Positions 10,065 through 47,664 of a stretch of 64,000 bases of DNA are shown one piece after another (position 1 is the first letter of the stretch; each line of letters starts with the position of its first letter). This stretch comes from an uncultured archaeon. GTDB taxonomy: Archaea > Altiarchaeota > Altiarchaeia > JAFGQM01. Position numbers and translations under genes: made by a program. Where the stretch lies: the NCBI GenBank assembly GCA_964540655.1, contig CAZINR010000001.1, positions 5,067 through 69,066 of the forward strand, written 5' to 3'. The notes beneath the pieces were generated by a model. The model was not told the DNA's origin and did no database searches. It saw only the letters and a list, made by a program, of their open reading frames with translations.

Positions 10065-10342
10065 ACTATGGTAGACTTCTCTATGAGCATTATGCCCATT
10101 ATGACTGCTATCGCGAGTATCAGCATCACACTTGCGTTGATAACTGTGGTGGGCCATCCGACCACCGTCCCATAAATCAGTATGGACATTATGGCCCCTA
10201 TAAGTACAAGAACATAGACCAGTTCTAGGACCTTCTTGTGGGCGTGGGGAAGCTCGAAGTGCAACGGGTCGGGGAGCTTGCTGAATGACTCTTTCACCGC
10301 GTCGTTGAGGGTCCCCTTCTCCCTTCTAGACTTTAGAACCAT
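10037..10342 (-). CDS. Small membrane protein, hypothetical
   Basis: Two hydrophobic helices (VLVLIGAIMSILIYGTVVGWPTTVINASVMLILAIAVIMGIML); overlaps both neighbouring gene ends slightly. Confidence 0.3.
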   Translation of the reverse strand: MVLKSRREKGTLNDAVKESFSKLPDPLHFELPHAHKKVLELVYVLVLIGAIMSILIYGTVVGWPTTVINASVMLILAIAVIMGIMLIEKSTIVHKPGKSSS

Positions 10343-11204
10343 CCTTCTCACGAATCTTCTTGAACTCTGCCATCAGCTTTTTTGTCAAATTGCCCGGCTT
10401 GCCGTCAGCTATCTTGCGCGCATCGCACTGCACGACAGGTATGACCTCTGCCGCCGTCCCGGTCATGAAGGCCTCATCGGCCGTGTAGACGTCGAAGAGT
10501 GTGAGGTTCTTTTCCTTGACTTTGACACCCATCTTCCCCGCCAACTCCATTATGGCGCCTCTGGTTATGCCTATGAGCACCCCGGCACCCGTGGGCGGCG
10601 TCCAGAGCTCTCCGTCCTTGACTATGAAGAAGTTGTCGCCCGTCCCCTCGGCGACATGGCCCAGGCTGTTGAGCATGAGGGCCTCGTCGCATTTGGCGAG
10701 ATTGGCCTGTATCTTGCCCATTATGTTGTTCAGGTAATTCAGAGTCTTTGCCTTTATGTCCAGCGCGTCGCAGGCGGTTCTTCTGGTTCCGACGGTAACG
10801 ACGCATATGCCCTTGTCATACAAATCGCCGTAGAGCGGGGCGAAATGCTGCGCTATGCATATTATCGTAGGCTTCGGGCACTTCCTCGGGTCGAGGCCCA
10901 AATCCCCGACGCCCCTTGTGACTATGAGCCGGACATAGGCGTCCTTCAGATTGTTCTTCCTTATGCTGCTTAGAACGATATCCGCCATCTCCTTCTTGGA
11001 GAGAGGGACCTCTAGATTTATAGCCTTGGCACTGTCATAGAGCCGGTCTATGTGCTGCTTCAGGCGGAAGACGTTGCCGTTGTAGCACCTTATGCCCTCA
11101 AAGACGCCGTCGCCGTAGAGCAGGCCGTGGTCGTAGACCGATATCTTCGCTTCCCCTTTGGGATAGAACTTCCCGTCGATGTAAATGACCTGTTCGGAAC
11201 TCAT
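10326..11204 (-). CDS. ilvE: Branched-chain amino acid aminotransferase
   Basis: 292 aa; fold-type IV aminotransferase signatures (GDGVFEGIRCY..., EAFMTGTAAEVIPV). Confidence 0.85.
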   Translation of the reverse strand: MSSEQVIYIDGKFYPKGEAKISVYDHGLLYGDGVFEGIRCYNGNVFRLKQHIDRLYDSAKAINLEVPLSKKEMADIVLSSIRKNNLKDAYVRLIVTRGVGDLGLDPRKCPKPTIICIAQHFAPLYGDLYDKGICVVTVGTRRTACDALDIKAKTLNYLNNIMGKIQANLAKCDEALMLNSLGHVAEGTGDNFFIVKDGELWTPPTGAGVLIGITRGAIMELAGKMGVKVKEKNLTLFDVYTADEAFMTGTAAEVIPVVQCDARKIADGKPGNLTKKLMAEFKKIREKDGSKV

Positions 11205-11240: not shown

Positions 11241-12698
11241 TTATCCCTTCACTGATATCATCGGCTTGACCACAGCGACCTTCTTCGCTATGCCGGCATT
11301 GTGCATGACGTCCACGACGCGGTCAACGTCCTTGTAGGCCCCGGGCGCCTCCTCGGCGACTCCCGCCAAGCTGTGACCCCTGATGATGATGCCCTTCTTG
11401 GCCAGCTCTTGGACGAGCTTCTCGCCCCTCCATTTCCCCTTGGCCTGCTTGCGGGACATGGCCCGCCCGGCCCCGTGACACGAGCTGCCCCACGTTTCGG
11501 CCATGCCCTGCTCGGTGCCGCGGAGTATGTAGGAATGAGTGCCCATAGTGCCGCCTATCAGAACGGGCTGCCCCACTTTGCGGTAGGCCTTCGGGACCTC
11601 CTCCCTGCCGGGCCCGAATGCGCGCGTGCTGCCCTTCCTGAGAATGACAAGCTCTTTGGTTTCCCCATCGATTTCGTGCTCTTCCAGCTTTGCGGTGTTG
11701 TGTCCGATGTCGTAGAGCATCCGGACGTCCTGCTCGTCCGTGCCCATGGCCTTTTTCACCGCCTTTCTGGTCAGATGCGCTATCGCCTGCCGGTTGGCGA
11801 AGGCCATGTTTATTCCGCAGTTGACCGCGGAGAAATACTTCTGGCCCTCATCACTGCTGAAGGGCGCAGAGACCAGCTCCTTTTCGCGGATGGGGATATT
11901 GTACTTCTTGCTGGCCTTCTCCAGGACCTTGAGGTAATCCGAACCTATCTGGTGCCCAAGCGCCCGTGAGCCGCAGTGGATGGAAATCAGCACCTGCCCT
12001 TCTTCCAGGCCGTAGGCTCCGGCCGCCTTCTCATCGAATATCCTGTCCACATATTGGACCTCCAGATAGTGATTGCCGCTGCCGAGCGTGCCCACCTGCT
12101 TGAATTGGCGCTGCTTAGCCTGTCGGCTGACGTTATCAGGCTTGGCCCCCTTGACCTTGCCGCACTCTTCCGTGTATTCTAAATCCTCTTTGAAACCATA
12201 ACCCTGGTCGACGACGTACTCCGCGCCCCTGACAAGAACCTCGTCTATCTGGTCTACTGATAGCCTGATGTCTCCGGTGGAACCAAGACCTGCTGGTACT
12301 GTGTCGAACAAGGAATCGGCGAGTTCTTTCTTCCTTTTCTCAACCTCTTCGCGCGTTAAACCAGTCTTGAGTGTCCTGACGCCGCAGTTGCAGTCGAAAC
12401 CGACTCCGGCAACACTAATAACACCAGTCTCGGTGTCGAACGCCCCGACCCCCCCTATCGGGAACCCGTAGCCTGGATGGACGTCGCTCATCGCCAGGCT
12501 GGCCTTCTGTATGCCGGGGAGGCACGCCACGTTGACTATCTGCTTTAGGGCGTTCCAGTCCTTGCCCGCGCGCACGTCGGCCACGAGGTGGTCGATGATG
12601 GCCGTGTCACCGTATATCCTGCCCGGCACCAGCATCTCGCCCTTCTTCGGCACCTCCCAGCGGTAGTCGTCTATCTGTTTGACCTCTATCTCATCCAT
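11241..12698 (-). CDS. rtcB: RNA-splicing ligase RtcB
   Basis: 485 aa; conserved RtcB motifs (DVHPGYGFPIGG, GFDCNCG, HNTAKLEEH, GSSCHGAGR). Confidence 0.9.
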   Translation of the reverse strand: MDEIEVKQIDDYRWEVPKKGEMLVPGRIYGDTAIIDHLVADVRAGKDWNALKQIVNVACLPGIQKASLAMSDVHPGYGFPIGGVGAFDTETGVISVAGVGFDCNCGVRTLKTGLTREEVEKRKKELADSLFDTVPAGLGSTGDIRLSVDQIDEVLVRGAEYVVDQGYGFKEDLEYTEECGKVKGAKPDNVSRQAKQRQFKQVGTLGSGNHYLEVQYVDRIFDEKAAGAYGLEEGQVLISIHCGSRALGHQIGSDYLKVLEKASKKYNIPIREKELVSAPFSSDEGQKYFSAVNCGINMAFANRQAIAHLTRKAVKKAMGTDEQDVRMLYDIGHNTAKLEEHEIDGETKELVILRKGSTRAFGPGREEVPKAYRKVGQPVLIGGTMGTHSYILRGTEQGMAETWGSSCHGAGRAMSRKQAKGKWRGEKLVQELAKKGIIIRGHSLAGVAEEAPGAYKDVDRVVDVMHNAGIAKKVAVVKPMISVKG

Positions 12699-12707
12699 GA
12701 TGTTGAA

Positions 12708-13130
12708 TCAAATGTCCAGCACGCACTGTACGTGGTGCTTGCCGCTGTCCGTCCAGCACTTCAAGCCCGAATAAGTGGCTGCTTTGACTTCCGTTTTCAC
12801 GTTATGCCCTTCCGGATTCAGCCTCTCCCCCCATGCTTCGGCCTTAAGCTTGCACTCCTTCTTCGACGCGTCTATATGTACCCTGAACCTCGAGAAAACC
12901 ATGCCCTCTGTGTCCACCTTCGCCAGAAGGGCGTTCAAGAACTCGACGAAAAGCGAGTCGACACTATCGGCAGAGACGCTTACTTCTATTTTCTTAGCTG
13001 GCTTCACCCTCGCTATGTCTACCATCTGGTTGAACATGGCCTTGGCGCCTTCCTCGAAGGCTTGCCCTAGGGTGTCCGCATTGGCCAGTATCCCCACATC
13101 TGCCTCATGCTCTAGATATTCAAAAGCCAT
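12708..13130 (-). CDS. Archease (RtcB activator)
   Basis: 140 aa; MAFEYLEHEADVGI N-terminus and overall archease architecture; immediately upstream of rtcB. Confidence 0.85.
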   Translation of the reverse strand: MAFEYLEHEADVGILANADTLGQAFEEGAKAMFNQMVDIARVKPAKKIEVSVSADSVDSLFVEFLNALLAKVDTEGMVFSRFRVHIDASKKECKLKAEAWGERLNPEGHNVKTEVKAATYSGLKCWTDSGKHHVQCVLDI

Positions 13131-13139
13131 TAGATTGAA

Positions 13140-14600
13140 TCACACGTAACCGGTCGCCTTTTTTTCCTCTGAGACCAAATGCCCGCTCACGTGGTCCTTG
13201 GACTTGCCTTTCCAGACGCTGCCGTACTTGTCGACAAGCTGCTGCTCCACGCTGCGCGCGTTCTTTACCGCCTCCTTGATGTGCCTGGCCTCGATGAGGC
13301 TCGCCTCCTCCATCTTGGCCACATCCCCGGCCAGCCGTATGACGCCACCCAGGTCGCGGAGTCTCAATGTCAGGGCGTTCTTCGTGTCGTCAATCTCCTC
13401 GGCCCTCCGCTCACCCTCCTTTATCAGCTCTTTCACGGCCCCGCGCGTGCCGTGGGCTATCTTGGTGTCTATCAGGACCTCCTGGGCGAAGAACTGTGCA
13501 ATCCTCTCCACGTTCTCCTTGGTCTTCGGCATGGTGGTGTCCAGCAGCACCTCGTATCCTGCGCCGAGTATCCTGGACCTGAGCGGTGGCAGTATCCCAC
13601 CCAATTCGTTGATGTTGCAGGCGCCCATGAATATGAAGTCGCATGGCACTCGAGTCACCTTCACCGCGGCTCCCGAGGACGTAGGGTTCATGCCGCTTAT
13701 GGGGAAGTGCTTGTCCTGCATTGCCGTGAGTATGTGGTGCTGGAGGTTCTCCAGCTGCGGCAGCTCGTCTATGAACAGCACCCCCTCATGCGCCTCGTGT
13801 ATGGCCCCCGCGACTACCCTCTCATAGGGCAGAAGCCCCCCGGCCTCCGGCATGCCCCCCCAGGGGTCATGTCTTACATCCCCGAGCAGCTCCGTTTCCG
13901 AGGCCCCGGTCGCCTGCACGAAACTGTTCCTTTTGAGCGGGACCAGAACCTTGCTCTGCTTTATCTTGTCCAGCTTGTTGAGGACCTTGAAGGCGTCGTT
14001 GTCTATTATGCGGACCTTCTTGGAGTCCACGGCCTGGTATATTATTATCTCTTCCTTCCCGCTCTTGTCGGTGCGCGTGACATGCACCTCCTCTTCGGGA
14101 TATTCGCACATCTCCACATTGAACACCTGAGAGAGCAAATCGGAGAACGGAGACCGGCTGACGCTGTCTCCCACCTTGACCTCTTTGCATGAAGGGCAGA
14201 TGTCTTCTTCCGCAGAGCTCATCTTCCCGCAGTGAGTGCACCTGAAGCCCAGCCGCTCCGAGACGTCTTCAGGCACTTTCTCAGGTCCTACGACCTTCCC
14301 TTTCGCCTTCTTCTCCATGCTCTTCTGCTTCTTCAGATCGTCGGAATCCCTCACGAAGATGAACGGCCTCTCAGCGTTCTTGGGGTTATGCGCCACAACA
14401 ATCTCCTGCCTGGGTTTCGGGAGATGGTAGGCCAGAGCGCGGGCGATCATGCTCTTCCCTATGCCTGGCGGACCTACAAGAAGGAGATGCCTTTTCTGCT
14501 TTGCCGCGATTCGAGCTATCCCGACCGCCTTGTCCTGGCCGATGACCATGTCCAGGGGGTCCCTGGGAAGCTCTACCTGCGAAGTGTCCTCAAAGTCCAT
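13140..14600 (-). CDS. LonB-like AAA+ ATPase lacking a protease domain, with an inserted zinc ribbon
   Basis: Walker A LLLVGPPGIGKSM, Walker B GVLFIDELPQL, LonB-like sensor segment FIFMGACNINELGGILPPLRSRILGAGYEVLLD and lid LTLRLRDLGGVIRLAGDVA. A CTHCGK...CPSCK Zn-ribbon lies between Walker A and B. No S-K protease domain. Confidence 0.7.
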   Translation of the reverse strand: MDFEDTSQVELPRDPLDMVIGQDKAVGIARIAAKQKRHLLLVGPPGIGKSMIARALAYHLPKPRQEIVVAHNPKNAERPFIFVRDSDDLKKQKSMEKKAKGKVVGPEKVPEDVSERLGFRCTHCGKMSSAEEDICPSCKEVKVGDSVSRSPFSDLLSQVFNVEMCEYPEEEVHVTRTDKSGKEEIIIYQAVDSKKVRIIDNDAFKVLNKLDKIKQSKVLVPLKRNSFVQATGASETELLGDVRHDPWGGMPEAGGLLPYERVVAGAIHEAHEGVLFIDELPQLENLQHHILTAMQDKHFPISGMNPTSSGAAVKVTRVPCDFIFMGACNINELGGILPPLRSRILGAGYEVLLDTTMPKTKENVERIAQFFAQEVLIDTKIAHGTRGAVKELIKEGERRAEEIDDTKNALTLRLRDLGGVIRLAGDVAKMEEASLIEARHIKEAVKNARSVEQQLVDKYGSVWKGKSKDHVSGHLVSEEKKATGYV

Positions 14601-14652
14601 CTGAAAACCCCACAGGTAATTATCCTGTGGTCTAAGGAAAACCTTTAGGCCT

Positions 14653-15969
14653 TCAGAACTTCGTGACTATTATCTTGTCCTTCGGAGCTTTGAGATTACC
14701 GGCAGTCGTTATGCCCACCAGATATTTGCAGCCCTTGGCCAGCTCAAGTATCTCGTTGGTTATTATGTCATCGATTACCAGCGCATTGGCCTTCTTCAGG
14801 TCCTTTTCCTTCTTGAGGGCGTCCAGGCTGACCTTCTTGATGTCCTTGAACTTGTCGTCAAGCAGAAGCGCCTCGTTCTTTATGTCGCTCAGCTTCTCGA
14901 GCAGCATGCCGGATTCCGAAGGCTTTTTGGCTTCCTCCGCGCTCCCGGAAGCTGAGCTGCCCCGCGAGGGCCTGCTTCTCGAAGGCCGGTCCTTCTCGGA
15001 TGAGCGGCTGCTCCTCTTCCTCGAGCTGTCCCGGCTGCTCCTCTTCCTCGAGCTGCTCTTGGACCTGGACGAGCTCTTCCTGTCGGAGCGCTCCTTGCGC
15101 GAGTCCCGGTCTGAAGAGGGCGGCTTACTCGAACCGCCGCCTTCCATCTCCTTGAAGACCTCATCGGCCGGCTTCTTCCTTCGCAGGGCCATTATCACAT
15201 CCTTCCTGCTAAGGCCCTCGACTTCACGCCCGGGCGGCGCCTTGGCGATGCTCTCGATTTTAATCCCGGCATTCCTCAGGGATTTGAGTATCAACTCTCC
15301 GCCGCGGTCTCCGTCAACGAATGCCGTGACCGACTTGCCCCTTGCCACATCCGTTATCTCGTTCGGTATCTTTATTCCGCCCACGGCCACCCCGTTCTTT
15401 ATTCCGTTCCTCAGGAGGTTCAGAACGTCGGCTCTGCCCTCCACGATTATTATGTTGTCGCTGCTCTCCACAGCAGGACCGGCGTCCAAGCCCTTCACTG
15501 TGGTTATGTGGCCTCCGCGTATATCCTCCCTCAGCTCCTCGCTTATCTCCTTGGCGTCCGGGAGTTCGGTCGACATGAAGGTCTTCAGTATCTCCCTCGC
15601 CCGGTCGACTATGTCCTTCCTTTTTTCCTCTCTGACGTCCTCAACGAGGCTTATCTTGAACGTGGCATCGCAAGGGCCTATCCTGCTTATGGTCTCCACA
15701 GCGGCTGCGATTATGGATGTCGCAACCATGTCAAGGCTGGAAGGTATGGTCACTTTGACCTGGGTTTTGCCCCCTTTGCCCTTCAGGGTGGCATCTATCC
15801 TGCCTATCCTGCCGGACTTCTGCAATTCTCTCAAATCCAAATCTTCCCCTAAAAGCCCCTCGGTCTGTCCGAATATAGCCCCGATAAGGTCGGGCTTCTC
15901 GACAAGTCCGTTGGCTTCCGCTTCAGCGTGTATTACGTATTTTATTATATCCACAGGTGCTTTGCTCAT
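14653..15969 (-). CDS. dnaG: Archaeal DnaG primase (Toprim), with Ser/Arg-rich low-complexity insertion
   Basis: N-terminus MSKAPVDIIKYVIHAEAEANGLVEKPDLIGAIFGQTEGLLGEDLDLRELQKSGRIGRID is the archaeal DnaG signature; Toprim region IIIVEGRADV. Confidence 0.85.
   Translation of the reverse strand: MSKAPVDIIKYVIHAEAEANGLVEKPDLIGAIFGQTEGLLGEDLDLRELQKSGRIGRIDATLKGKGGKTQVKVTIPSSLDMVATSIIAAAVETISRIGPCDATFKISLVEDVREEKRKDIVDRAREILKTFMSTELPDAKEISEELREDIRGGHITTVKGLDAGPAVESSDNIIIVEGRADVLNLLRNGIKNGVAVGGIKIPNEITDVARGKSVTAFVDGDRGGELILKSLRNAGIKIESIAKAPPGREVEGLSRKDVIMALRRKKPADEVFKEMEGGGSSKPPSSDRDSRKERSDRKSSSRSKSSSRKRSSRDSSRKRSSRSSEKDRPSRSRPSRGSSASGSAEEAKKPSESGMLLEKLSDIKNEALLLDDKFKDIKKVSLDALKKEKDLKKANALVIDDIITNEILELAKGCKYLVGITTAGNLKAPKDKIIVTKF
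15006..15056. repeat. Tandem 27-bp direct repeat (2 copies) inside dnaG encoding an SR-rich stretch
   Basis: cggctgctcctcttcctcgagctg occurs at 15006-15029 and 15033-15056 (plus-strand text); encodes SSRKRSSRDSS/SRKRSSRSS. Confidence 0.5.
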
Positions 15970-15982
15970 TTTGATTTCTCCT

Positions 15983-16294
15983 TTAAAGTGTCTTTTGTTT
16001 TTTCAATGTGTCCGACACTTCTTTCAGGGTTGCGCCGAGAATCAGGATTTGCTTATCCCTGGACTTCGCACCAGTTGACAAGACGACTTCCTTCCCGAAA
16101 AGGGAATTGAAAAAATCTAACAACGAACGATTGGCCCTGCCTTTATCCGCGGGCTCTGACGTCTTGAACCTGATTGATTTTTTCCAGTTATCATATCCAT
16201 CGAGAGCGGTCTTGGAAGCGCCGGGCACGACCCGGAGCCTCATCACCACCCCATCCTCGACTTCCCTTAAAGCATCAAACATCATAAAGCGCAA
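15983..16294 (-). CDS. DUF167 (YggU/UPF0235) family protein
   Basis: 103 aa; characteristic motifs LRVVPGASK...LDGYDNW...GKANRSL; 13 nt upstream of dnaG on the same strand. Confidence 0.55.
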   Translation of the reverse strand: MRFMMFDALREVEDGVVMRLRVVPGASKTALDGYDNWKKSIRFKTSEPADKGRANRSLLDFFNSLFGKEVVLSTGAKSRDKQILILGATLKEVSDTLKKQKTL

Positions 16295-16939: not shown

Positions 16940-17311
16940 TTACTCAATTATCTCGATTTCTTGGGGATTTCCAGTCCCGTCGTAGGCCGCCACGTCCTCT
17001 GCTCCCCGGTACGGGTACCCCAGAATCAGGTTGACGTTGCCGACCCTCGAGAACATCCGCAGGTCCGCGCGGCTGGGGCGGTTGCTGCCAGAAGGGTGGG
17101 AGTGGACCACGCCCACGGTCTTCGAGTCTATCGGCAGCATGTTCATGCGGAAGCTGGCGAATTTCCTGCCTTGGATGGTGCCGGGCAGCAATAGGACCTC
17201 CTTGATTCTGTTTCCCTCGCCCCTTATCATCGCCCCGAACTCGCTGGGGTATGCGGTGCGCGCGGCATGGAGCACGAGCTCCAGGACCCCGCGGGGTATC
17301 TGTATGGCCAT
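16940..17311 (-). CDS. JAMM/MPN+ family metalloprotease
   Basis: Exact JAMM motif E...HSHPSGSNRPSRAD (H-x-H-x7-S-x2-D) in a 123-aa protein. Confidence 0.8.
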   Translation of the reverse strand: MAIQIPRGVLELVLHAARTAYPSEFGAMIRGEGNRIKEVLLLPGTIQGRKFASFRMNMLPIDSKTVGVVHSHPSGSNRPSRADLRMFSRVGNVNLILGYPYRGAEDVAAYDGTGNPQEIEIIE

Positions 17312-24622: not shown

Positions 24623-25885
24623 ATGGCCTATGTAGACCTGAACTACAAACCGTCCAAGGACGACCTGATATGCAAGTACTATGTGGAACCGAACGGCATA
24701 CCTTTGAAGAAGGCGTGCGAGGAAATCGCTGCCGAGTCGAGCATCGGCACTTGGACCGATTTGACGACCCTGAAGCCCGAGACCAGGGAGCGGCTGCAGG
24801 CGAGGGTGTTCGAAATAGACCAGAAGAAGAAGACAGCGCTCATCGCCTATCCCCTGCCATTGTTCGAGCTGGGCAGCATGCCCGAGATACTCTCGAGCAT
24901 CGCCGGCAACATATTCGGCATGAAGGCCTTGAAGAACCTGAGGCTGCTGGACATCTCATTCCCCCTGAAGGCGGTCAAGTCCTTCAAGGGGCCGAAATTC
25001 GGGATACCGGGAGTGCGGGACGTCCTGAAGGTGTATGACCGTCCCCTGGTCGGAACCATAATAAAGCCGAAGGTCGGTCTGGACTACAAAAACCATGCGA
25101 GAGTAGCCTATGAAGCCTGGACCGGCGGCATGGACATAGTCAAGGACGACGAGAACCTGACCAGCCAGACCTTCAACCCGTTCAGGAAGAGGGTCAAGGA
25201 GACCCTGAAGCTGAGGGACGAGGCGGAGAAGGAGACGGGCGAGAGGAAGATGTACATGGCCAACGTCACCGCCGAGACCACCGAGATGATAAAGAGGGCG
25301 GAGTTCGTCAAGGAGCAGGGCGGCGAGTACGTCATGGTGGACATACTGACCTGCGGGTTTTCCGGCCTGCAGACACTGAGAGATGCCGATTTGGATCTTG
25401 TGCTGCATGCGCACAGGGCAGGCCATGCCATGCTGACGCGCAACAAGAAGCACGGCATGACCATGCTGACCCTGGCCAAGATTACCCGTTTGGTAGGGCT
25501 GGACCAGCTTCATATCGGGACCATAGTCGGCAAGATGCACGGCGGAAAGCAGGAGGTCATAGACATAGAAAGGTCTATACAGGACTCTTTCATCGAGGCG
25601 CACGGCGATGTCCTTGAGCAGGAGTGGTACGGAATGAAGCCGGTCTTCCCCGTCTGCTCCGGAGGGCTGCATCCCGGGCACGTCCCCTCGCTGGTCAAGT
25701 ATCTGGGGAGGGACATAATAATCCAAGCAGGCGGAGGATGCCACGGCCACCCGAAGGGCAGCTGCGCCGGTGCGGCTGCGATGCGGCAGGCGGTCGAGGC
25801 GGCCATGGAGGGCAGTTCGCTGAAGGAATATTCACAAAGTCATGAAGAGCTCAAAGCGGCTCTCAAGAAATGGGGTGAAGGATGA
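24623..25885 (+). CDS. rbcL: Ribulose-1,5-bisphosphate carboxylase/oxygenase, type III
   Basis: 420 aa; GGMDIVKDDENL, carbamylated-lysine region, GGGCHGHP loop; archaeal type III length. Confidence 0.9.
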   Translation: MAYVDLNYKPSKDDLICKYYVEPNGIPLKKACEEIAAESSIGTWTDLTTLKPETRERLQARVFEIDQKKKTALIAYPLPLFELGSMPEILSSIAGNIFGMKALKNLRLLDISFPLKAVKSFKGPKFGIPGVRDVLKVYDRPLVGTIIKPKVGLDYKNHARVAYEAWTGGMDIVKDDENLTSQTFNPFRKRVKETLKLRDEAEKETGERKMYMANVTAETTEMIKRAEFVKEQGGEYVMVDILTCGFSGLQTLRDADLDLVLHAHRAGHAMLTRNKKHGMTMLTLAKITRLVGLDQLHIGTIVGKMHGGKQEVIDIERSIQDSFIEAHGDVLEQEWYGMKPVFPVCSGGLHPGHVPSLVKYLGRDIIIQAGGGCHGHPKGSCAGAAAMRQAVEAAMEGSSLKEYSQSHEELKAALKKWGEG

Positions 25886-27435
25886 GCAGCAGACTGGACG
25901 ATGAGCGCATGGGACCGTTGAGCGAGAAGATAAATACGGCCCAACTGGGCGAAAGGCTGAAAGTAAAGATAATAGACATAGATGCTGGTCGGGCAATAGC
26001 CCTTATGCACGAGGACGATGCGCGCAGGCTTTCCATACACATGGGCGACAGGGCATTCCTCTGCAAGAAATCGGCCACATGCGGCGGAGTCGCAATAGTC
26101 GATGTCACGGACACTATGGTCAAGGAAGGGGAAATAGGCGTCTTCAACGATCTGGCGTCGGCGATGAAGCTGACCTCCAGATCTACGGTTTTCGTTTCAC
26201 CGCGAGAGAAGCCCGAATCGGTGTCATACATACGGAAGAAGATAGATGGCCAGGAGCTCTCCAGGAAAGAGATACATACAATCACCAAAGACATAGTCGA
26301 TGATAACCTCAGCGACATAGAGCTCACCTCCTTCGTAACAGCATCGGCCATACACGGCTTCAGCAAGAGAGAGACGGTCTCGCTTACGATGTCTATGGTC
26401 AATACGGGTGACAGACTCGATTTCAAGGGAACGGTAGTCGACAAGCATTGCATAGGCGGGGTCCCCGGCAACCGGACCACCATGATGATAGTCCCGATGC
26501 TGGCTGCTCTGGGCCTTAAGATACCCAAGACCTCCTCTAGGGCCATAACCTCCCCGTCGGGCACCGCAGACACCATGGAGGTCCTAGCACCGGTGAGCTA
26601 TGGGGCCAAGGACGTCAGGAGGTTCGTCAACAAAGTGGGCGGCTGCATAGTCTGGGGCGGCGCAATAAACCTGGCACCGGCCGACGACAAAATAATCCGG
26701 GTGGAATACCCCCTATCTATAGATTCGGAAGGTCAGGTCCTCGCGAGCATAATCTCCAAGAAGAAGAGCGTCGGCAGCGATTATGTCCTTCTGGACATAC
26801 CACACGGCGAAGGCGCAAAGATAGGGGATCGGAAGAGTGCGGATGAGCTGGGGCGCAAGTTCGTCGATCTGGCTGAGGAAGTGGGGATAGAGCTGCATTA
26901 TATACTGACTGACGGGACCCAACCGATAGGAAACGGGATAGGGCCCATACTGGAGGCGAGGGACGTCCTCGGCGCTCTCAATGGCGACGGACCGAAAGAC
27001 CTGGTCGAAAAGAGCGTAATGATGGTCGGCGAGCTGATGGAGTTCTGCGGAGCCGCCTCCAGGGGCGAGGGCAGGAAAGAGGCAAGGGTCTGCCTGGACG
27101 AGGGGGCTGCCAGGAAGAAGATGATGGAGATAATCAAGATACAAGGAGGCGACCCAAAAATCTGCTCTTCGGACTTAAAGCATGGCAAGTTCATGAAGCC
27201 CGTCGTCTCTAAGACGGGCGGCAGAGTCAAGCATATCGACAACATGTCCGTGGCCAAGATAGCGCGGACTGCCGGCTGCCCGAAAGATCCGGCTGCCGGG
27301 ATGCTGCTGGAGAAGAAGGTCGGGGACCGGGTGGACGCAGGTGAGATACTTTTCACAGTATATGCCGAGAACCCGACAAAGCTGAACTATGCGATGAAGC
27401 TTATCAAGAAGAGGAATCCCTTCACGCTTAAGTGA
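25882..27435 (+). CDS. deoA: AMP phosphorylase (thymidine phosphorylase family)
   Basis: 517 aa with the N-terminal extension typical of archaeal AMPpase plus glycosyl transferase family 3 motifs; ATGA overlap with rbcL. Confidence 0.85.
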   Translation: MSSRLDDERMGPLSEKINTAQLGERLKVKIIDIDAGRAIALMHEDDARRLSIHMGDRAFLCKKSATCGGVAIVDVTDTMVKEGEIGVFNDLASAMKLTSRSTVFVSPREKPESVSYIRKKIDGQELSRKEIHTITKDIVDDNLSDIELTSFVTASAIHGFSKRETVSLTMSMVNTGDRLDFKGTVVDKHCIGGVPGNRTTMMIVPMLAALGLKIPKTSSRAITSPSGTADTMEVLAPVSYGAKDVRRFVNKVGGCIVWGGAINLAPADDKIIRVEYPLSIDSEGQVLASIISKKKSVGSDYVLLDIPHGEGAKIGDRKSADELGRKFVDLAEEVGIELHYILTDGTQPIGNGIGPILEARDVLGALNGDGPKDLVEKSVMMVGELMEFCGAASRGEGRKEARVCLDEGAARKKMMEIIKIQGGDPKICSSDLKHGKFMKPVVSKTGGRVKHIDNMSVAKIARTAGCPKDPAAGMLLEKKVGDRVDAGEILFTVYAENPTKLNYAMKLIKKRNPFTLK

Positions 27436-31112: not shown

Positions 31113-32816
31113 TCAGGAATGCTCCTGATGCGCGCGCACCTCGTCCCTCAGTTCTTTTAGAATCTCCCCGAGCTCCTCAACGTTCACAGAAAGCATTCTT
31201 TCGTAACCCCCGTCTTTTGTATCGATAATTGTCGTCACCTTTCCATTACCTTCACCCACCCCTCCCAAGTCCCTTATGACCGAGTCAACTTCCTCTACGG
31301 ACGGTCTGCTGCCCGTGCCCTTGTAAGACAGTAATTTTCCAATTCCGCGACGCACATCTCTTAGACTGGGCGACATTCTGACTCTCGCATTTGAAGGAGG
31401 ATTCGCCCTCCTGCCCCTAGAACCCCTCAGTACCCTGTGGTGTTCCGAGAGCTTTTCCAGCAGGGTGTCAGCAGTCAGCATATCTCTCCTCAATGGCGGA
31501 GACCCGCCTTTAACCGGGCGGCGCATGCCTCCCCAAAGAGTGACTTGACCCTCTGAAAAATAACTATCATACAACCTCTTCATGCCTCTGACGCCCACGC
31601 CGTGCTTTCGGGCTATATCCGTTAGACTCGCTGCCCCCCTCCTGACCTCCTGGAAGTCTCCCTCCAAATCGGTCTTCAAATAATCAAAATATTTTTTGAC
31701 CTGCCCCTCGCTTAGCCCCGTCGTGCCGACATGCGATTTCTGGGACCATCTCCCCGAGGCCCTGCGCAGGATTTCTCTTCTTATCCGATGGCCATGCCCC
31801 TCTCCACCCTCTATTATCTCTCTCTGACGATCGTTTATGAGGCCGGCCTCATGAAGGCACATGGCGGCGGCCTCGTGTCCGCTCACAGAATATTTTCGCT
31901 TATACCATCGTATAACTTTGTCGGGGAAATGCTTAGGCTGGACCTCCAAAGCTTTGCCCCCAGCCGCCTCTAAAGCCTTCTTAGCTTCTTCTGCTCTTCT
32001 CTCAGGCGTCCACCTGGTCGTATGCTGCCTAAGTTCGCCCCGGCTGAAAGGCTCCAGCATAGCTCTTCTTGCGTCTCTGCGGTCACCGTGTATGCCGCGC
32101 AGGGTCCTGAAATGTTGGGGTATCGCCCGTATGGACTCCACCCTCTTCAATATTCCCGGTCTGTTACTCCTAGGGACCCCTACCATCCCCATGGCCCCCT
32201 CCGGGTCGGTCCTGAGCAGCTCGGCAAATCTTTTTTCATTGCTTGCGGACCCGCGCTCCGGCCTGCCTATGAGTTTCCAGTAAAGGGCTCTAGCGTATCT
32301 CCGCTCAGCCTTTTCCAAATCCGCGACGCTCAATTCATGGGGGCCCCTGGCTTCTCCCCCCCATATATGCCGTGGCATGTAACCTCTGACTTCGGAGACT
32401 GCCCTAGTGTAATCTTTTAGTGCAGATCCAAGTTCCTTTTCATTGGGGGGCGTTGACACGTTCGGATTGAACACATGCTTCATTGCGCCCATCTGTCGCA
32501 GACGGTGGACTCTTTCACCCCATTCCTGGCCCAACGGCGGCCCCCCCTCGACCAACCGCACCCCCGCCACTTCACTAGGGCTTTCCCTGCCTGCGATAGA
32601 TTCTTCCAGAGAAGACCTCAGATGTCTCTTCAGAGCTTCGGTCCTGTTTCTCAGAGTAGTTTCGGCCAGATGCCTCCCGAAGACCCTCCTGCCGAGCTCC
32701 AGCGTAGAAAGGTCTGGGCCGTGGTCTATAAGCAATTTGAGGGCACGTCGCCTGACTTCTACAGGGAAACTGGAATATTTTTTATATTCGCCCCCAGACC
32801 GCCGTCGCCTGGCCAT
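31113..32816 (-). CDS. Large Arg-rich protein of unknown function (567 aa)
   Basis: Uninterrupted 1.7-kb ORF in a high-GC context; no recognisable catalytic motifs; a possible HTH-like segment (SLTDIARKHGVGVRGMKRLY). Confidence 0.5.
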   Translation of the reverse strand: MARRRRSGGEYKKYSSFPVEVRRRALKLLIDHGPDLSTLELGRRVFGRHLAETTLRNRTEALKRHLRSSLEESIAGRESPSEVAGVRLVEGGPPLGQEWGERVHRLRQMGAMKHVFNPNVSTPPNEKELGSALKDYTRAVSEVRGYMPRHIWGGEARGPHELSVADLEKAERRYARALYWKLIGRPERGSASNEKRFAELLRTDPEGAMGMVGVPRSNRPGILKRVESIRAIPQHFRTLRGIHGDRRDARRAMLEPFSRGELRQHTTRWTPERRAEEAKKALEAAGGKALEVQPKHFPDKVIRWYKRKYSVSGHEAAAMCLHEAGLINDRQREIIEGGEGHGHRIRREILRRASGRWSQKSHVGTTGLSEGQVKKYFDYLKTDLEGDFQEVRRGAASLTDIARKHGVGVRGMKRLYDSYFSEGQVTLWGGMRRPVKGGSPPLRRDMLTADTLLEKLSEHHRVLRGSRGRRANPPSNARVRMSPSLRDVRRGIGKLLSYKGTGSRPSVEEVDSVIRDLGGVGEGNGKVTTIIDTKDGGYERMLSVNVEELGEILKELRDEVRAHQEHS

Positions 32817-44235: not shown

Positions 44236-47200
44236 ATGACGCAGCTCATCATCGCCGAGAAGCCGAGCGTGGCAGGCAAGATAGCCAACGCCATAGGCCG
44301 CGCGCACAAGAAGAGCCGCAACGGAGCGCCCTACTACGAGGTGGATGCCCCCGACGGCAAGGCGATAGTCGCCCCCGCGGTCGGGCATGTCTACACGTTA
44401 CAGGAGACGCAAAACAAGAAGTGGAACCTTGAGTATCCGGTCTTCGACATCCAGTGGGTGCCCATCTACCAGGCGGAGAAGGGCGCTTCATACACGAAAT
44501 CCTATGTCAGCAACATCAAAGAGCTGTGCAAGGAGGCCGACTCTTATGTCAACGCGTGCGACTATGATGTCGAGGGCAGCGTTATCGGATACAATGTCCT
44601 CAAGCACGCCTGCGGCGCAGACCCGGAGAAAGACAAGATTAAACGAATGCACTTCTCGACCGTGACCACGCCCGACCTGGTCAGGGCCTACAACGAGATG
44701 GAGGAGTTCGACGACGGCCAGACCCAGGCCGGCCTGACCCGCCATGTCCTGGACTGGTACTACGGCATAAACCTCTCCCGCGCGCTCATCTCCGCCCTGC
44801 GCTCCACCCGCACCAGGGGGACCCTGAGCATAGGCAGGGTGCAGGGCCCCGCGCTGAAGCTGATAGTCGACAAGGAGCGCGAGATAAGGGCTTTCGTGCC
44901 AGAGCCGTATTGGGTGATAAGCGCTCTCCTAAACAAGGACAAGGATTTTGAGGCCGTCCATGTCAAGGAGAAGTTCGAGAAAGAGGAAGAGGCCAAGGCA
45001 GCGTATGAGAAGGTCAAGGGGCAGAAGACCGGCACGGTCAAGAGCGTCGACCGGAAGAAATACAAGCAGCCTCCTCCCAACCCCTTCGATCTGACGTCGC
45101 TGCAGGTGGAGGCACACCGCCATCACCGCATAGCTCCCAAGCAGACTCTGGAGATTGGCCAGACCCTATACGAGAGAGGATACATCTCATATCCGAGGAC
45201 ATCCTCGCAGCAGCTGCCGCCGAGCATCGGTTACAAAAAGATACTGGACAAGATAGCGCAGCAGTCCGAATACTCCGAGGGCGCGGAAAAACTGCTCTCC
45301 AAGCCTTCGCTGCGGCCGAACAACGGCAAGAAGAAGGACCCGGCGCACCCGGCCATCTATCCGACCGGCGAGGTCCCGAAGGGAATCGCCGACCGTGAGA
45401 AGAGGGTCTACGACTTAATAGTCCGCAGGTTCATGGCCACCTTCGGAGAGTGGGCGGTGAGGGAGAGCATGAAGGCGATAATCGACATCAACACCGAAGA
45501 CTTCAAGGCCGAGGGCAAGCGCACCGTGGAGAAGAACTGGCACGAGCTCTACGGCAAGTACGCCAAGTTCGACGAGGTGATGCTGCCCGATTTGAAGGAG
45601 GGCGAATCCGTAGACATCAAGAAGCTCGGACTCGACAAGAAGATGACCCAGCCGCCGAAGCGCTACACCGAGTCGTCCATAATCAGCGAGCTGGAGAAGA
45701 GGAACCTGGGCACAAAGTGCGCAGAGTATGGCACGGAAATCTATATCAAAAGAAACGGCAAAATTAGTAAGGTCCCCATAGGAAAGTTTGTTGATAAACA
45801 ACTTAAATCGGGCCTGAACTCAAAAGAAATAAAAAAAGGGACCCATACCCTATGCTGCGATATTAAAAATCATAGAATGGTATGGAAACCCATCAGTTCA
45901 GTCAGTAGGAGACCTGTTGAGGAGAATGAGCTCAAAGAAGTAATGGCAGCAGGGTCCTCAATAAAACTTACAAATGAGCATCCCGTTGCAATCTTAAAGG
46001 AGAATGCGATTAAATTCAAAGAAGTAAAAAAACTTAAGATAGGGGATAACTTAATTCGGGCAAGACCTATACGATGGGATCCTAAATCCAGAGTAATCGC
46101 AAATATGATTGGCGATGGAAGCATCTCTATAAGAAAAGATATCCATGAAAAGACCCCGGACATGCGTTATCACAATAAAGAGCTGGCCCTTATCGACGTT
46201 TTTTCATCCGCTGCCAATATTGCCTTTTGCGCCGGGGCCATTAAGAGAAAGGCTTCAAGAGGTAGATACTATGTTGCCTTGCCCTTGGCTGCAGGCAGAA
46301 AAATTCTGCAACAGTATCCGGAAATTGAAAAAGGGGAGTTTCCTGAGTCGATTGATAAACCTACTGCAATAGGAGCCTTTTTTGATGACGAAGGTTGTGT
46401 TTATTTAGAGCAAATAAAAGAATATGGCAACATTCAGTCCTCGGGGGTGCCCAAGATAAAGATGGCACAAAAGATCAGAGGACCCCTGGACCAGATTTCC
46501 CTATGGTTGCGTGATTTGGGCATATCATCTAAGGTTTACAAAACCAATGTTAATTATCGTGGCTCTAAACGGGAATGCTATGAGCTATGGGTGCGCGGCA
46601 GGAAGAATCTTGAAAGATTTATGCGGAACATCCCCTTTTTCCATCCAAGAAAGTTTGAGAAACTTATGCTCGGCCTGTCCAGATATCCATCGGTTTTGAA
46701 GAAAGCCCGGATTTACAGGAATATAGATCTACAGGGCAACACACATGACAGCGATTTAAGCAAATCTCTGGGATTATCCCTAACTCACACTAGGGCCTTA
46801 TGCCGGGAATTGGAAGAAGACGGCCTAATAAAAATAACGAGAAAGCCAAATCTTAAGAGGCGAAGCGCCAATAACTCACTATGCCTTACTGTCTCTTTAC
46901 CTTACTTTGACACCTTCTATTCAAGACTTGGCGATATTTGTCTAAGTTCGAAAATGACTGCGGTCCCAGTATCCGGAATAAGGCCGGCATGGTCTACCCA
47001 TAAATTTGTGTACGATATAACCGTGGATTCGGAAACTCCAAATTACTTTGCGGGACATTGTGGCCTTCTAATACACAACTCCACTCGCGCGACCGTCATA
47101 GACACGCTGTTCAAGCGCAATTACATAATCGGCAAGTCCATAGAGGCGACCGACCTGGGGGTAAAGACGGTCGAGACCCTGGAGAAGCACAGCCCGGAGA

Positions 47201-47664
47201 TTCTGGATGAGGAGCTGACCCGCAGTTTCGAGGAGGAGATGGACGAGCTGATGGGGGGGAAGAAGACTGGCGAGGAGGTTGAAGCCAAGAACCGACACGT
47301 CTTGCTGAAGGTGCTGGAGAAATTCAAGAAGGAGGAGAAAGAGATAGGCGAAGAGCTGAGGAGCGCTCTCTTCAAGGCACAAGAGGAGAAGGCGGAGAGC
47401 GACGCGCTCGGCAAGTGTCCCGTTTGTAAAGAGGGATTGCTCGTCATCAGGAGGAACCCCAAGACCAAGAAGCGCTTCCTGGGCTGCAGCAACTATCCAA
47501 AATGCACCGAGACGCAGCCCCTCCCGCAGAAGGGATCTGTCAAGCCGGCCAAGAAGGACTGCCCGACCTGCGGCTACCCGATGGCCAACGTCTGGAGCAG
47601 AGGCAAGAAGGCCCCTTGGGTCATATGCACGAACATCAACTGCCCGAGCAAGAAGAAAAAGTAA
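44236..47664 (+). CDS. topA: DNA topoisomerase I (type IA) interrupted by an intein; C-terminal zinc ribbons
   Basis: Toprim N-terminus (LIIAEKPSVAGKIA), active-site GYISYPRTSS, C-terminal CPVCK...CSNYPKC and CPTCG...CTNINC ribbons. Mature protein would be about 688 aa. Confidence 0.85.
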   Translation: MTQLIIAEKPSVAGKIANAIGRAHKKSRNGAPYYEVDAPDGKAIVAPAVGHVYTLQETQNKKWNLEYPVFDIQWVPIYQAEKGASYTKSYVSNIKELCKEADSYVNACDYDVEGSVIGYNVLKHACGADPEKDKIKRMHFSTVTTPDLVRAYNEMEEFDDGQTQAGLTRHVLDWYYGINLSRALISALRSTRTRGTLSIGRVQGPALKLIVDKEREIRAFVPEPYWVISALLNKDKDFEAVHVKEKFEKEEEAKAAYEKVKGQKTGTVKSVDRKKYKQPPPNPFDLTSLQVEAHRHHRIAPKQTLEIGQTLYERGYISYPRTSSQQLPPSIGYKKILDKIAQQSEYSEGAEKLLSKPSLRPNNGKKKDPAHPAIYPTGEVPKGIADREKRVYDLIVRRFMATFGEWAVRESMKAIIDINTEDFKAEGKRTVEKNWHELYGKYAKFDEVMLPDLKEGESVDIKKLGLDKKMTQPPKRYTESSIISELEKRNLGTKCAEYGTEIYIKRNGKISKVPIGKFVDKQLKSGLNSKEIKKGTHTLCCDIKNHRMVWKPISSVSRRPVEENELKEVMAAGSSIKLTNEHPVAILKENAIKFKEVKKLKIGDNLIRARPIRWDPKSRVIANMIGDGSISIRKDIHEKTPDMRYHNKELALIDVFSSAANIAFCAGAIKRKASRGRYYVALPLAAGRKILQQYPEIEKGEFPESIDKPTAIGAFFDDEGCVYLEQIKEYGNIQSSGVPKIKMAQKIRGPLDQISLWLRDLGISSKVYKTNVNYRGSKRECYELWVRGRKNLERFMRNIPFFHPRKFEKLMLGLSRYPSVLKKARIYRNIDLQGNTHDSDLSKSLGLSLTHTRALCRELEEDGLIKITRKPNLKRRSANNSLCLTVSLPYFDTFYSRLGDICLSSKMTAVPVSGIRPAWSTHKFVYDITVDSETPNYFAGHCGLLIHNSTRATVIDTLFKRNYIIGKSIEATDLGVKTVETLEKHSPEILDEELTRSFEEEMDELMGGKKTGEEVEAKNRHVLLKVLEKFKKEEKEIGEELRSALFKAQEEKAESDALGKCPVCKEGLLVIRRNPKTKKRFLGCSNYPKCTETQPLPQKGSVKPAKKDCPTCGYPMANVWSRGKKAPWVICTNINCPSKKKK
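45718..47079 (+). mobile_element. Intein (454 aa) with LAGLIDADG homing-endonuclease domain in topA
   Basis: Begins with Cys after LGTK and ends HN before STRATVI. Block B TNEHP, LAGLIDADG-like VIANMIGDGSI and AIGAFFDDEGCVY, terminal VYDITVDS...GLLIHN. AT-rich internal segment. Removal restores an LGTK-STRATVI motif like E. coli GIGRPSTYASI. Confidence 0.8.

Follow-up and report, generated by a model that had tools for sequence, protein, structure and literature searches.

What does a Lon-like AAA+ ATPase do next to the genes for archease and the RNA ligase RtcB? The question is raised by a 486-amino-acid protein encoded on the minus strand of a 64,000-nucleotide stretch of DNA (hereafter, the window) from an uncultured archaeon of the Altiarchaeota (contig CAZINR010000001.1, assembly GCA_964540655.1, positions 5,067 to 69,066), whose gene is followed in the same direction by those for archease and RtcB (Table 1). 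The original prediction, made from the sequence alone, placed the ATPase at the head of an undescribed RNA-repair operon, as a dedicated partner of archease and RtcB. The analysis described here indicates that the ATPase is a soluble, protease-less derivative of the membrane protease LonB and that its conserved genomic neighbor is DnaG rather than RtcB. We favor, with modest confidence, a role as an unfoldase or remodeler functionally coupled to DnaG.

A LonB-type motor without the protease

The NCBIfam model of LonB (TIGR00764) matches the ATPase with an E-value of 4e-100 and 336.2 bits, under the cutoff of 516.6, and the best-scoring stretch stops at position 404 of the 608 positions of the profile. 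The lid domain typical of LonB (PF20436, LonB_AAA-LID) is recognized by Pfam, and the closest solved structure is that of LonB from Thermococcus onnurineus (3k1j), matched by a 68-sequence profile with E 6e-115. This match comes in two stretches, with residues ~92-227 skipped; over residues 228-465, which include the LLGDVRHDP[Y/F] segment, the alignment is ~55% identical. The AlphaFold2 (AF2) model of the ATPase (predicted local distance difference test, pLDDT, 81.9; predicted template modeling score, pTM, 0.70) is closest to the same structure (Foldseek E 6e-37). Weaker hits, by structure as well as by sequence, include RuvB and MCM (Foldseek E ~1e-7), and the match to the Pfam AAA domain (PF00004) is limited to the Walker A stretch, the best matches being to the Lon family.

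The Walker A and Walker B motifs, the sensor-1 asparagine (N329) and the arginines R341 and R343 are invariant across the 68 aligned sequences of the family, as are R413 and R415 of the LRLRDLGG motif. The aromatic residue of the HDP[W/Y]G motif is conserved in alignments A1 and A2 as well as in the divergent representatives. We presume this motif to be pore loop 1; its counterpart in the T. onnurineus enzyme (TonLonB), HDPFQ, is presumably the aromatic pore loop of the TonLonB structure.

A Pfam search of the ATPase gave no match to Lon_C, the Ser-Lys protease domain, and no transmembrane segment is present in the protein (the 19-residue Kyte-Doolittle maximum is 1.16 overall). Compared with archaeal LonB (3k1j/4zpx; TIGR00764; MEROPS S16), the ATPase has the same AAA+ module, lid, LLGDVRHDP-aromatic loop and insertion point between Walker A and Walker B, but in place of the transmembrane anchor and the Ser-Lys protease of LonB it has a soluble zinc-ribbon insert and a [G/S]-[Y/F]-x tail. 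Thus, of the four features that define LonB, three are missing, as the ATPase has neither membrane anchor nor protease domain and scores below the family cutoff; the fourth, the AAA+ module with its lid, is present. The ATPase is intact, with all the catalytic motifs in place, and by all appearances derives from the membrane protease LonB. These results bear out the prediction of a LonB-like AAA+ ATPase that is devoid of the Ser-Lys protease domain.

The second-best structural matches are to LonC of Meiothermus taiwanensis, a Lon-family variant in which the insertion between the two Walker motifs is likewise of a non-membrane type. LonC retains the protease and its ATPase is dead (PMC3391209), and is thus the mirror case of the window family, which has a live ATPase and no protease.

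The insert that occupies the position of the LonB membrane anchor is hydrophilic, with no hydrophobic segment (19-residue Kyte-Doolittle maximum of 0.36 within residues ~62-222) and no recognizable fold; our search of it gave no nucleic-acid-binding fold. The four cysteines of its zinc ribbon (C121, C124, C135 and C138) are present in 120/120 and 114/114 homologues, in addition to all divergent full-length representatives, and the AF2 model has short strands at this site (pLDDT ~84). The replacement of the LonB membrane insertion by a CxxC...CxxC zinc ribbon, noticed already in the original prediction, is therefore confirmed.

A short helix and a flexible tail stand where LonB has the Ser-Lys protease domain. 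In 120 homologues, position -2 of the tail is aromatic in 113 (103 with Tyr, 10 with Phe), and position -3 is mostly Gly (87 sequences), followed by Ser (15) and Met (10); position -1 and the rest of the tail sequence are variable. All 114 full-length members from Methanobacteriaceae end with [S/G]-Y-[M/L/I]. The rule that Forouzan et al. 2012 (PMC3493965) used to assign the HbYX motif, in a survey that covered classical AAA proteins only, requires a small or hydrophobic residue at position -3 and Phe or Tyr at position -2. The G-Y-V tail of the ATPase conforms to this rule, which is a sequence criterion only. By homology with LonB, the tail would emerge from the face of the ring through which the substrate exits.

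DnaG is the conserved neighbor of the ATPase

Gene neighborhoods were compared across 93 related loci (86 once redundancy is removed) that were collected by a genome scan, by exact-protein look-ups and by scanning metagenome contigs with a 52-residue family-specific alignment, from which the best 80 of 489 were retained. DnaG, archease, RtcB and the other genes of the window were located in these loci by tblastn. A locus was considered close if the identity of its ATPase to that of the window was at least 60%, and distant if it was below 60%; loci were counted for DnaG if they extended at least 1.5 kb upstream, and for archease and RtcB if they extended at least 2.5 kb downstream.

DnaG is encoded directly upstream of the ATPase, on the same strand, in 58 of the 60 loci (8/8 close and 50/52 distant). 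The two loci without an adjacent DnaG are one from Micrarchaeota (L005) and one in which DnaG is 3.5 kb off (L056). The gap between the stop codon of DnaG and the start of the ATPase has a median of 79 nucleotides (nt) in 57 unique pairs and is 20 nt or less in 12 of these, including 6 overlaps. The association extends to very divergent members of the family, with the orders DnaG-OsmC-ATPase (P0128) and Toprim gene, 90-amino-acid gene, ATPase (P0140); P0126 is the sole case among the divergent loci examined in which no DnaG was found nearby.

Archease and RtcB, in contrast, are found downstream of the ATPase in 5 of 6 close loci, with the order ATPase, archease, RtcB recurring in relatives with 64-81% ATPase identity, but in 0 of 44 distant loci, within a flank of at least 2.5 and at most ~6.4 kb. 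In close relatives, the adjacency of the ATPase and archease is interrupted by an open reading frame (ORF) of 201 amino acids (L040) or by a Methyltransf_28 gene on the opposite strand (L038). Furthermore, in the lineage of the window, the block of 8 genes JAB-DUF167-DnaG-ATPase-archease-RtcB-aminotransferase-RibD is syntenic as a whole, unrelated metabolic genes included, so that the adjacency of the ATPase and RtcB reflects the synteny of a lineage rather than an obligate operon. The genes that flank the DnaG-ATPase pair vary by lineage, those downstream including an integrase, aspartate dehydrogenase, GNAT, Hjc and uracil-DNA glycosylase (UDG). The order of DnaG and the ATPase is kept while these flanks turn over, which points to selection and would not be expected otherwise. 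The conserved neighbor of the ATPase is DnaG, not RtcB. The proposals that the ATPase is dedicated to RtcB and archease, and that the three genes make up an undescribed RNA-repair module, are not supported: among the loci surveyed, the linkage is confined to the lineage of the window, an outcome that the original prediction itself had named as a refutation. Nor does the ATPase head the run of genes: it is the third gene in it, preceded on the same strand by DUF167 and DnaG.

In L034 (4270-4683), in L099 and in 8 other loci, DnaG is closely preceded by a gene for a Toprim-only protein of ~137 amino acids; the order small Toprim, DnaG, ATPase is found in Methanobacterium-like and some other loci. 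DnaG of the window itself has, at residues ~275-345, a long low-complexity linker rich in Ser, Arg and Lys (…SSDRDSRKERSDRKSSSRSKSSSRKRSSRDSSRKRSSRSSEKDRPSRSRPSRG…) that leads from the Toprim domain to the C-terminal domain and resembles the RS domains of eukaryotes.

A possible role of the ATPase in conjunction with DnaG

On balance, the ATPase is probably a soluble, LonB-derived unfoldase or remodeler that is functionally coupled to DnaG and possibly docks on a partner ring. Under this scenario, the ATPase would form a LonB-like ring in which ATP drives the threading or remodeling of polypeptide substrates. The zinc-ribbon insert, on the entry face, would select the client, and the tail, which would be located on the exit face at the position of the LonB protease domain, would attach the ring to a distinct partner, possibly the 20S proteasome. 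The ATPase would work with DnaG or act on it. The domain content, the integrity of the motifs, the breadth of the family, the linkage with DnaG and the lack of a conserved linkage with RtcB are observed; ring formation, the polypeptide nature of the substrate, the functions ascribed to insert and tail, and any physical contact with DnaG are inferred. Archaeal DnaG has been described as an RNA-binding subunit of the exosome cap (PMC4227792, PMC3672285), and a part in replication or repair has been proposed as well (PMC2643942). There is also a precedent for an unfoldase in such company: Cdc48a of Haloferax associates with an RNase complex in an ATP-dependent manner (PMC10470531).

The tail is of the kind used by proteasome activators. 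The ATPases with HbYX tails, namely PAN, archaeal Cdc48/VAT, AMA and Mpa (the latter with GQYL), are likewise of the unfoldase type, have no protease of their own and end in a disordered C-terminus that follows the HbYX rule. These, however, are classical AAA proteins with a coiled-coil/OB or a double-psi-barrel N-domain, whereas the window ATPase belongs to the Lon branch of AAA+ and has neither type of N-domain. A bolder version of the scenario, which we consider speculative and rather unlikely, is that archaea have, in this family, a third class of unfoldases that dock on the proteasome, one derived from Lon, whose [G/S]-Y-x tails insert into the alpha-ring of the 20S proteasome, and which is recruited through DnaG or acts on it. 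If so, a Lon-derived docking unfoldase would physically tie protein degradation to the exosome or to the primase machinery, and docking of the tail on 20S would mean that the network of archaeal proteasomal ATPases reaches past the classical AAA proteins. Such docking would echo the linkage of exosome and proteasome genes in archaea, which has long been noted.

Several points weigh against the role of an unfoldase coupled to DnaG. Gene adjacency is indicative of a functional link, not of its nature, and the zinc ribbon, DnaG, and the Hjc and UDG genes downstream in divergent members fit a role in nucleic acid processing equally well. The C-terminal tyrosine is lost in the divergent members P0126, P0132 and P0139, and the locus sample leans to Thermoplasmata-like sequences, because the metagenome scan kept the best 80 of 489. 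In addition, the family coexists with PAN in lineages such as Methanobacteriales, and is therefore not a simple substitute for PAN.

The role of archaeal DnaG is a long-standing puzzle, as the protein may belong to the exosome cap, serve as a second primase, or do both, and a conserved, tightly linked AAA+ motor provides a concrete handle on it. The family is also a clean natural case of a self-compartmentalized protease, LonB, turned into a free-standing ATPase.

Alternative explanations

The main rival explanation, unlikely but to be taken seriously, is that the ATPase is a nucleic-acid motor that works with DnaG, be it as a hexameric helicase or translocase paired with a Toprim primase, as in DnaB-DnaG or T7 gp4, as a RuvB-like branch migration motor, or as an RNA translocase that feeds the DnaG-capped exosome; the zinc ribbon would then bind nucleic acid. 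The conserved adjacency of DnaG, the invariance of the four cysteines, and the presence of RuvB and MCM among the weaker matches are all compatible with such a motor. So is the DNA-repair context hinted at in very divergent lineages: the gene directly after the ATPase in L122 (1542-2129), L123 (1755-2120) and the P0140 locus encodes UDG (once) or Hjc (twice, in two independent clusters), and overlaps the end of the ATPase gene in L122 and L123. These contexts, however, are single loci from fast-evolving lineages; the RuvB and MCM matches are far weaker than that to LonB (Foldseek E ~1e-7 vs 1e-37); the insert yielded no nucleic-acid-binding fold; and the motor core, including the HDP-aromatic loop, closely resembles (~55% identity) that of LonB, which degrades proteins. 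As in DnaB-DnaG and T7 gp4, a putative ring ATPase is tightly linked with a DnaG-type Toprim protein, but the motor of those systems is a RecA-type helicase, whereas that of the window family is a Lon-type AAA+ module in which no helicase features were found. Moreover, the best-documented role of archaeal DnaG is that of a subunit of the exosome (PMC4227792, PMC3672285).

The remaining explanations rank below the nucleic-acid motor. It is improbable that the ATPase is a housekeeping soluble paralogue of LonB, a general chaperone or unfoldase, with the adjacency of DnaG being an ancient, frozen gene order without functional significance. The intact AAA+ motor and the broad distribution of the family fit this view, but a frozen order is hard to square with the retention of the DnaG-ATPase pair in 58/60 loci from several phyla, with overlaps or short spacers between the two genes and turnover of the genes around them.

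The possibility that the ATPase is a dedicated unfoldase, remodeler or sensor for archease and RtcB, in a new RNA-repair operon analogous to RtcR-RtcBA, has become very unlikely. It is consistent with the tight, co-directional arrangement of the three genes in the window and its recurrence in relatives, but has been largely refuted by the neighborhood survey, with no linkage in any of the 44 distant loci, the pair split in close relatives, and synteny that takes in the entire 8-gene block, unrelated metabolic genes included. The resemblance to RtcR, which the original prediction had invoked, is shared by AAA+ proteins in general. Like the window ATPase, RtcR is an AAA+ protein encoded beside rtcB, but it is a bacterial activator of sigma-54 that combines a CARF sensor with a domain for DNA binding, and sigma-54 is not known from archaea. 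The RtcR model (NF038308) gives 34.8 bits against a cutoff of 650, its best stretch covering only the ~40 residues 264-303; Sigma54_activat of Pfam likewise matches only ~40 residues of the ATPase, and the linkage with rtcB is not conserved.

Finally, a decayed or truncated LonB pseudogene that lost its protease domain to a frameshift, for which only the missing domain itself speaks, can be ruled out with near certainty, given that the stop codon of the ATPase lies 9 nt before the archease start, which leaves no room for a downstream Lon remnant, that the listed full-length homologues are uniformly ~480-515 amino acids long, that the catalytic residues are all invariant in the 68 sequences, and that the C-terminal motif is conserved.

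Distribution and annotation of the family

The first family search produced 2918 matches among 8000 candidates scored, a set that includes true LonB proteins. None of the best 120 of these matches contains Lon_C, and the full-length ones among them are ~480-515 amino acids in length. In a library clustered at 50% identity, ~8 full-length clusters and two degenerate ones rank ahead of true LonB; the true LonB proteins in this library are 600-1100 amino acids long and match in two stretches.

The family is widespread in archaea and uncharacterized. It is represented in isolates of Methanobacterium congolense, M. formicicum, M. aggregans, M. petrolearium and M. ferruginis, and also in Methanothermobacter, Thermoplasmata, Methanomassiliicoccales, Altiarchaeales and Micrarchaeota. 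The presence of the family in cultured Methanobacterium species makes it amenable to pull-down, deletion and reconstitution experiments. Its members are labeled in the source databases as “ATP-binding protein”, “Lon protease family protein”, “AAA family ATPase”, “peptidase” or “ATP-dependent Lon protease”; as there is no protease domain, the labels “peptidase” and “ATP-dependent Lon protease” are wrong. NCBIfam has no model dedicated to this family, and our search of the full-text literature, with subscription works and arCOG annotations outside its scope, found no description of the ATPase family or of the DnaG/Lon-like pair.

Two shorter members, P0136 and P0138 (442-443 amino acids), keep the zinc ribbon and Walker A but are without the Walker B Glu (ISDL or LPDL), the HDP-aromatic loop and the C-terminal tail; these are probably inactive paralogues. 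Another one, P0123 (539 amino acids), follows the ATPase to residue ~370 and then continues into a C-terminus similar to the HATPase_c domain of histidine kinases, which probably reflects a frameshift or an assembly chimera and not a real fusion.

Layout of the locus and other features of the window

The genes from DUF167 to the class IV aminotransferase form a tightly spaced run, with spacers of 13, 52, 9, 9 and 36 nt (Table 1). Archease and RtcB are adjacent, and the two short spacers, TGA-ttcaatcta-ATG between the ATPase and archease and TGA-ttcaacatc-ATG between archease and RtcB, are each 9 nt long, in agreement with the minus-strand order and the spacing of 7-9 nt that had been read originally. 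As a tRNA-splicing gene pair, archease and RtcB are nothing unusual and have been described before (Desai et al. 2014, as cited in PMC10630183).

Table 1. The DnaG-ATPase locus: genes of the run and features of the ATPase (window coordinates)
Feature	Coordinates	Strand	Basis or remark
DUF167/YggU gene	15983..16294	-	Pfam; opens tightly spaced co-directional run
Archaeal DnaG (Toprim)	14653..15969	-	NCBIfam PRK04031, 435.6 bits, cutoff 300
DnaG/ATPase spacer, 52 nt	14601..14652	-	Read from sequence
LonB-type AAA+ ATPase, soluble, protease-less, 486 amino acids	13140..14600	-	ORF, Pfam, NCBIfam, profile, Foldseek
Walker A GPPGIGKS, residues 43-50	14451..14474	-	Invariant in 68-homologue alignment
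Insert between Walker A and Walker B, residues ~62-222	13935..14417	-	At LonB membrane-anchor position
Zinc ribbon CxxC-x10-CxxC (C121, C124, C135, C138)	14187..14240	-	Invariant in homologues
HDP[W/Y]G, presumed pore-loop-1 aromatic W247	13857..13871	-	Aligns with TonLonB HDPFQ
Walker B VLFIDE, residues 274-279	13764..13781	-	Invariant in 68 homologues
Sensor-1 GACN (N329) and PLRSR (339-343), arginine-finger region, R341/R343	13572..13625	-	Invariant in 68 homologues
LRLRDLGG (412-419), sensor-2 region, LonB-type lid domain	13344..13367	-	Motif reading, PF20436
Disordered tail, residues 472-486, ends G-Y-V, HbYX-like [small]-[Y/F]-x	13143..13187	-	AF2 pLDDT <50
Archease	12708..13130	-	Pfam PF01951, E 6e-41; lineage-specific downstream neighbor
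RtcB RNA ligase, 485 amino acids	11241..12698	-	Pfam PF01139, E 7e-163; lineage-specific downstream neighbor
Class IV aminotransferase	10326..11204	-	Pfam

The spacer between DnaG and the ATPase contains a perfect 7-bp hairpin, CCACAGG-ataatta-CCTGTGG (14610-14630, minus strand), followed by GGTTTTC. This element could be an attenuator or a terminator, or else its AT-rich loop could serve as a promoter element. Scans of the window for Rfam families and tRNAs gave no match.

Upstream of the run, at 16940-17311 on the minus strand, is a gene for a JAB/JAMM metalloprotease-like protein (Prok-JAB, 123 amino acids, motif HSHPSGSNRPSRAD), separated from DUF167 by ~650 nt without annotation. The proximity of a JAMM gene to an ATPase of the unfoldase type is reminiscent of Rpn11 and the Rpt ring. 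The JAB/JAMM and DUF167 genes are linked to the locus in all close relatives but were found in none of the distant ones, where tblastn may miss divergent copies; this linkage was accordingly given no weight as evidence. RtcB of one relative (L038, 9967-12930; 67% ATPase identity) bears an intein and is 987 amino acids long; RtcB of the window is intein-free, although its best NCBIfam match is the model of intein-containing RtcB.

Elsewhere in the window, the 567-amino-acid ORF at 31113-32816 (minus strand) has no Pfam match at E 1e-5. On the plus strand, at 44236-47664, there is a topoisomerase I/III-type gene (Toprim, Topoisom_bac and zinc ribbon) that is split by an intein with a LAGLIDADG homing endonuclease. 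Also on the plus strand, at 24623-27435, the gene for the large subunit of a form III RuBisCO shares its last 4 nt with the downstream gene, which is of the AMP/pyrimidine-nucleoside phosphorylase type; together, these two genes are the AMP-salvage pair of archaea.

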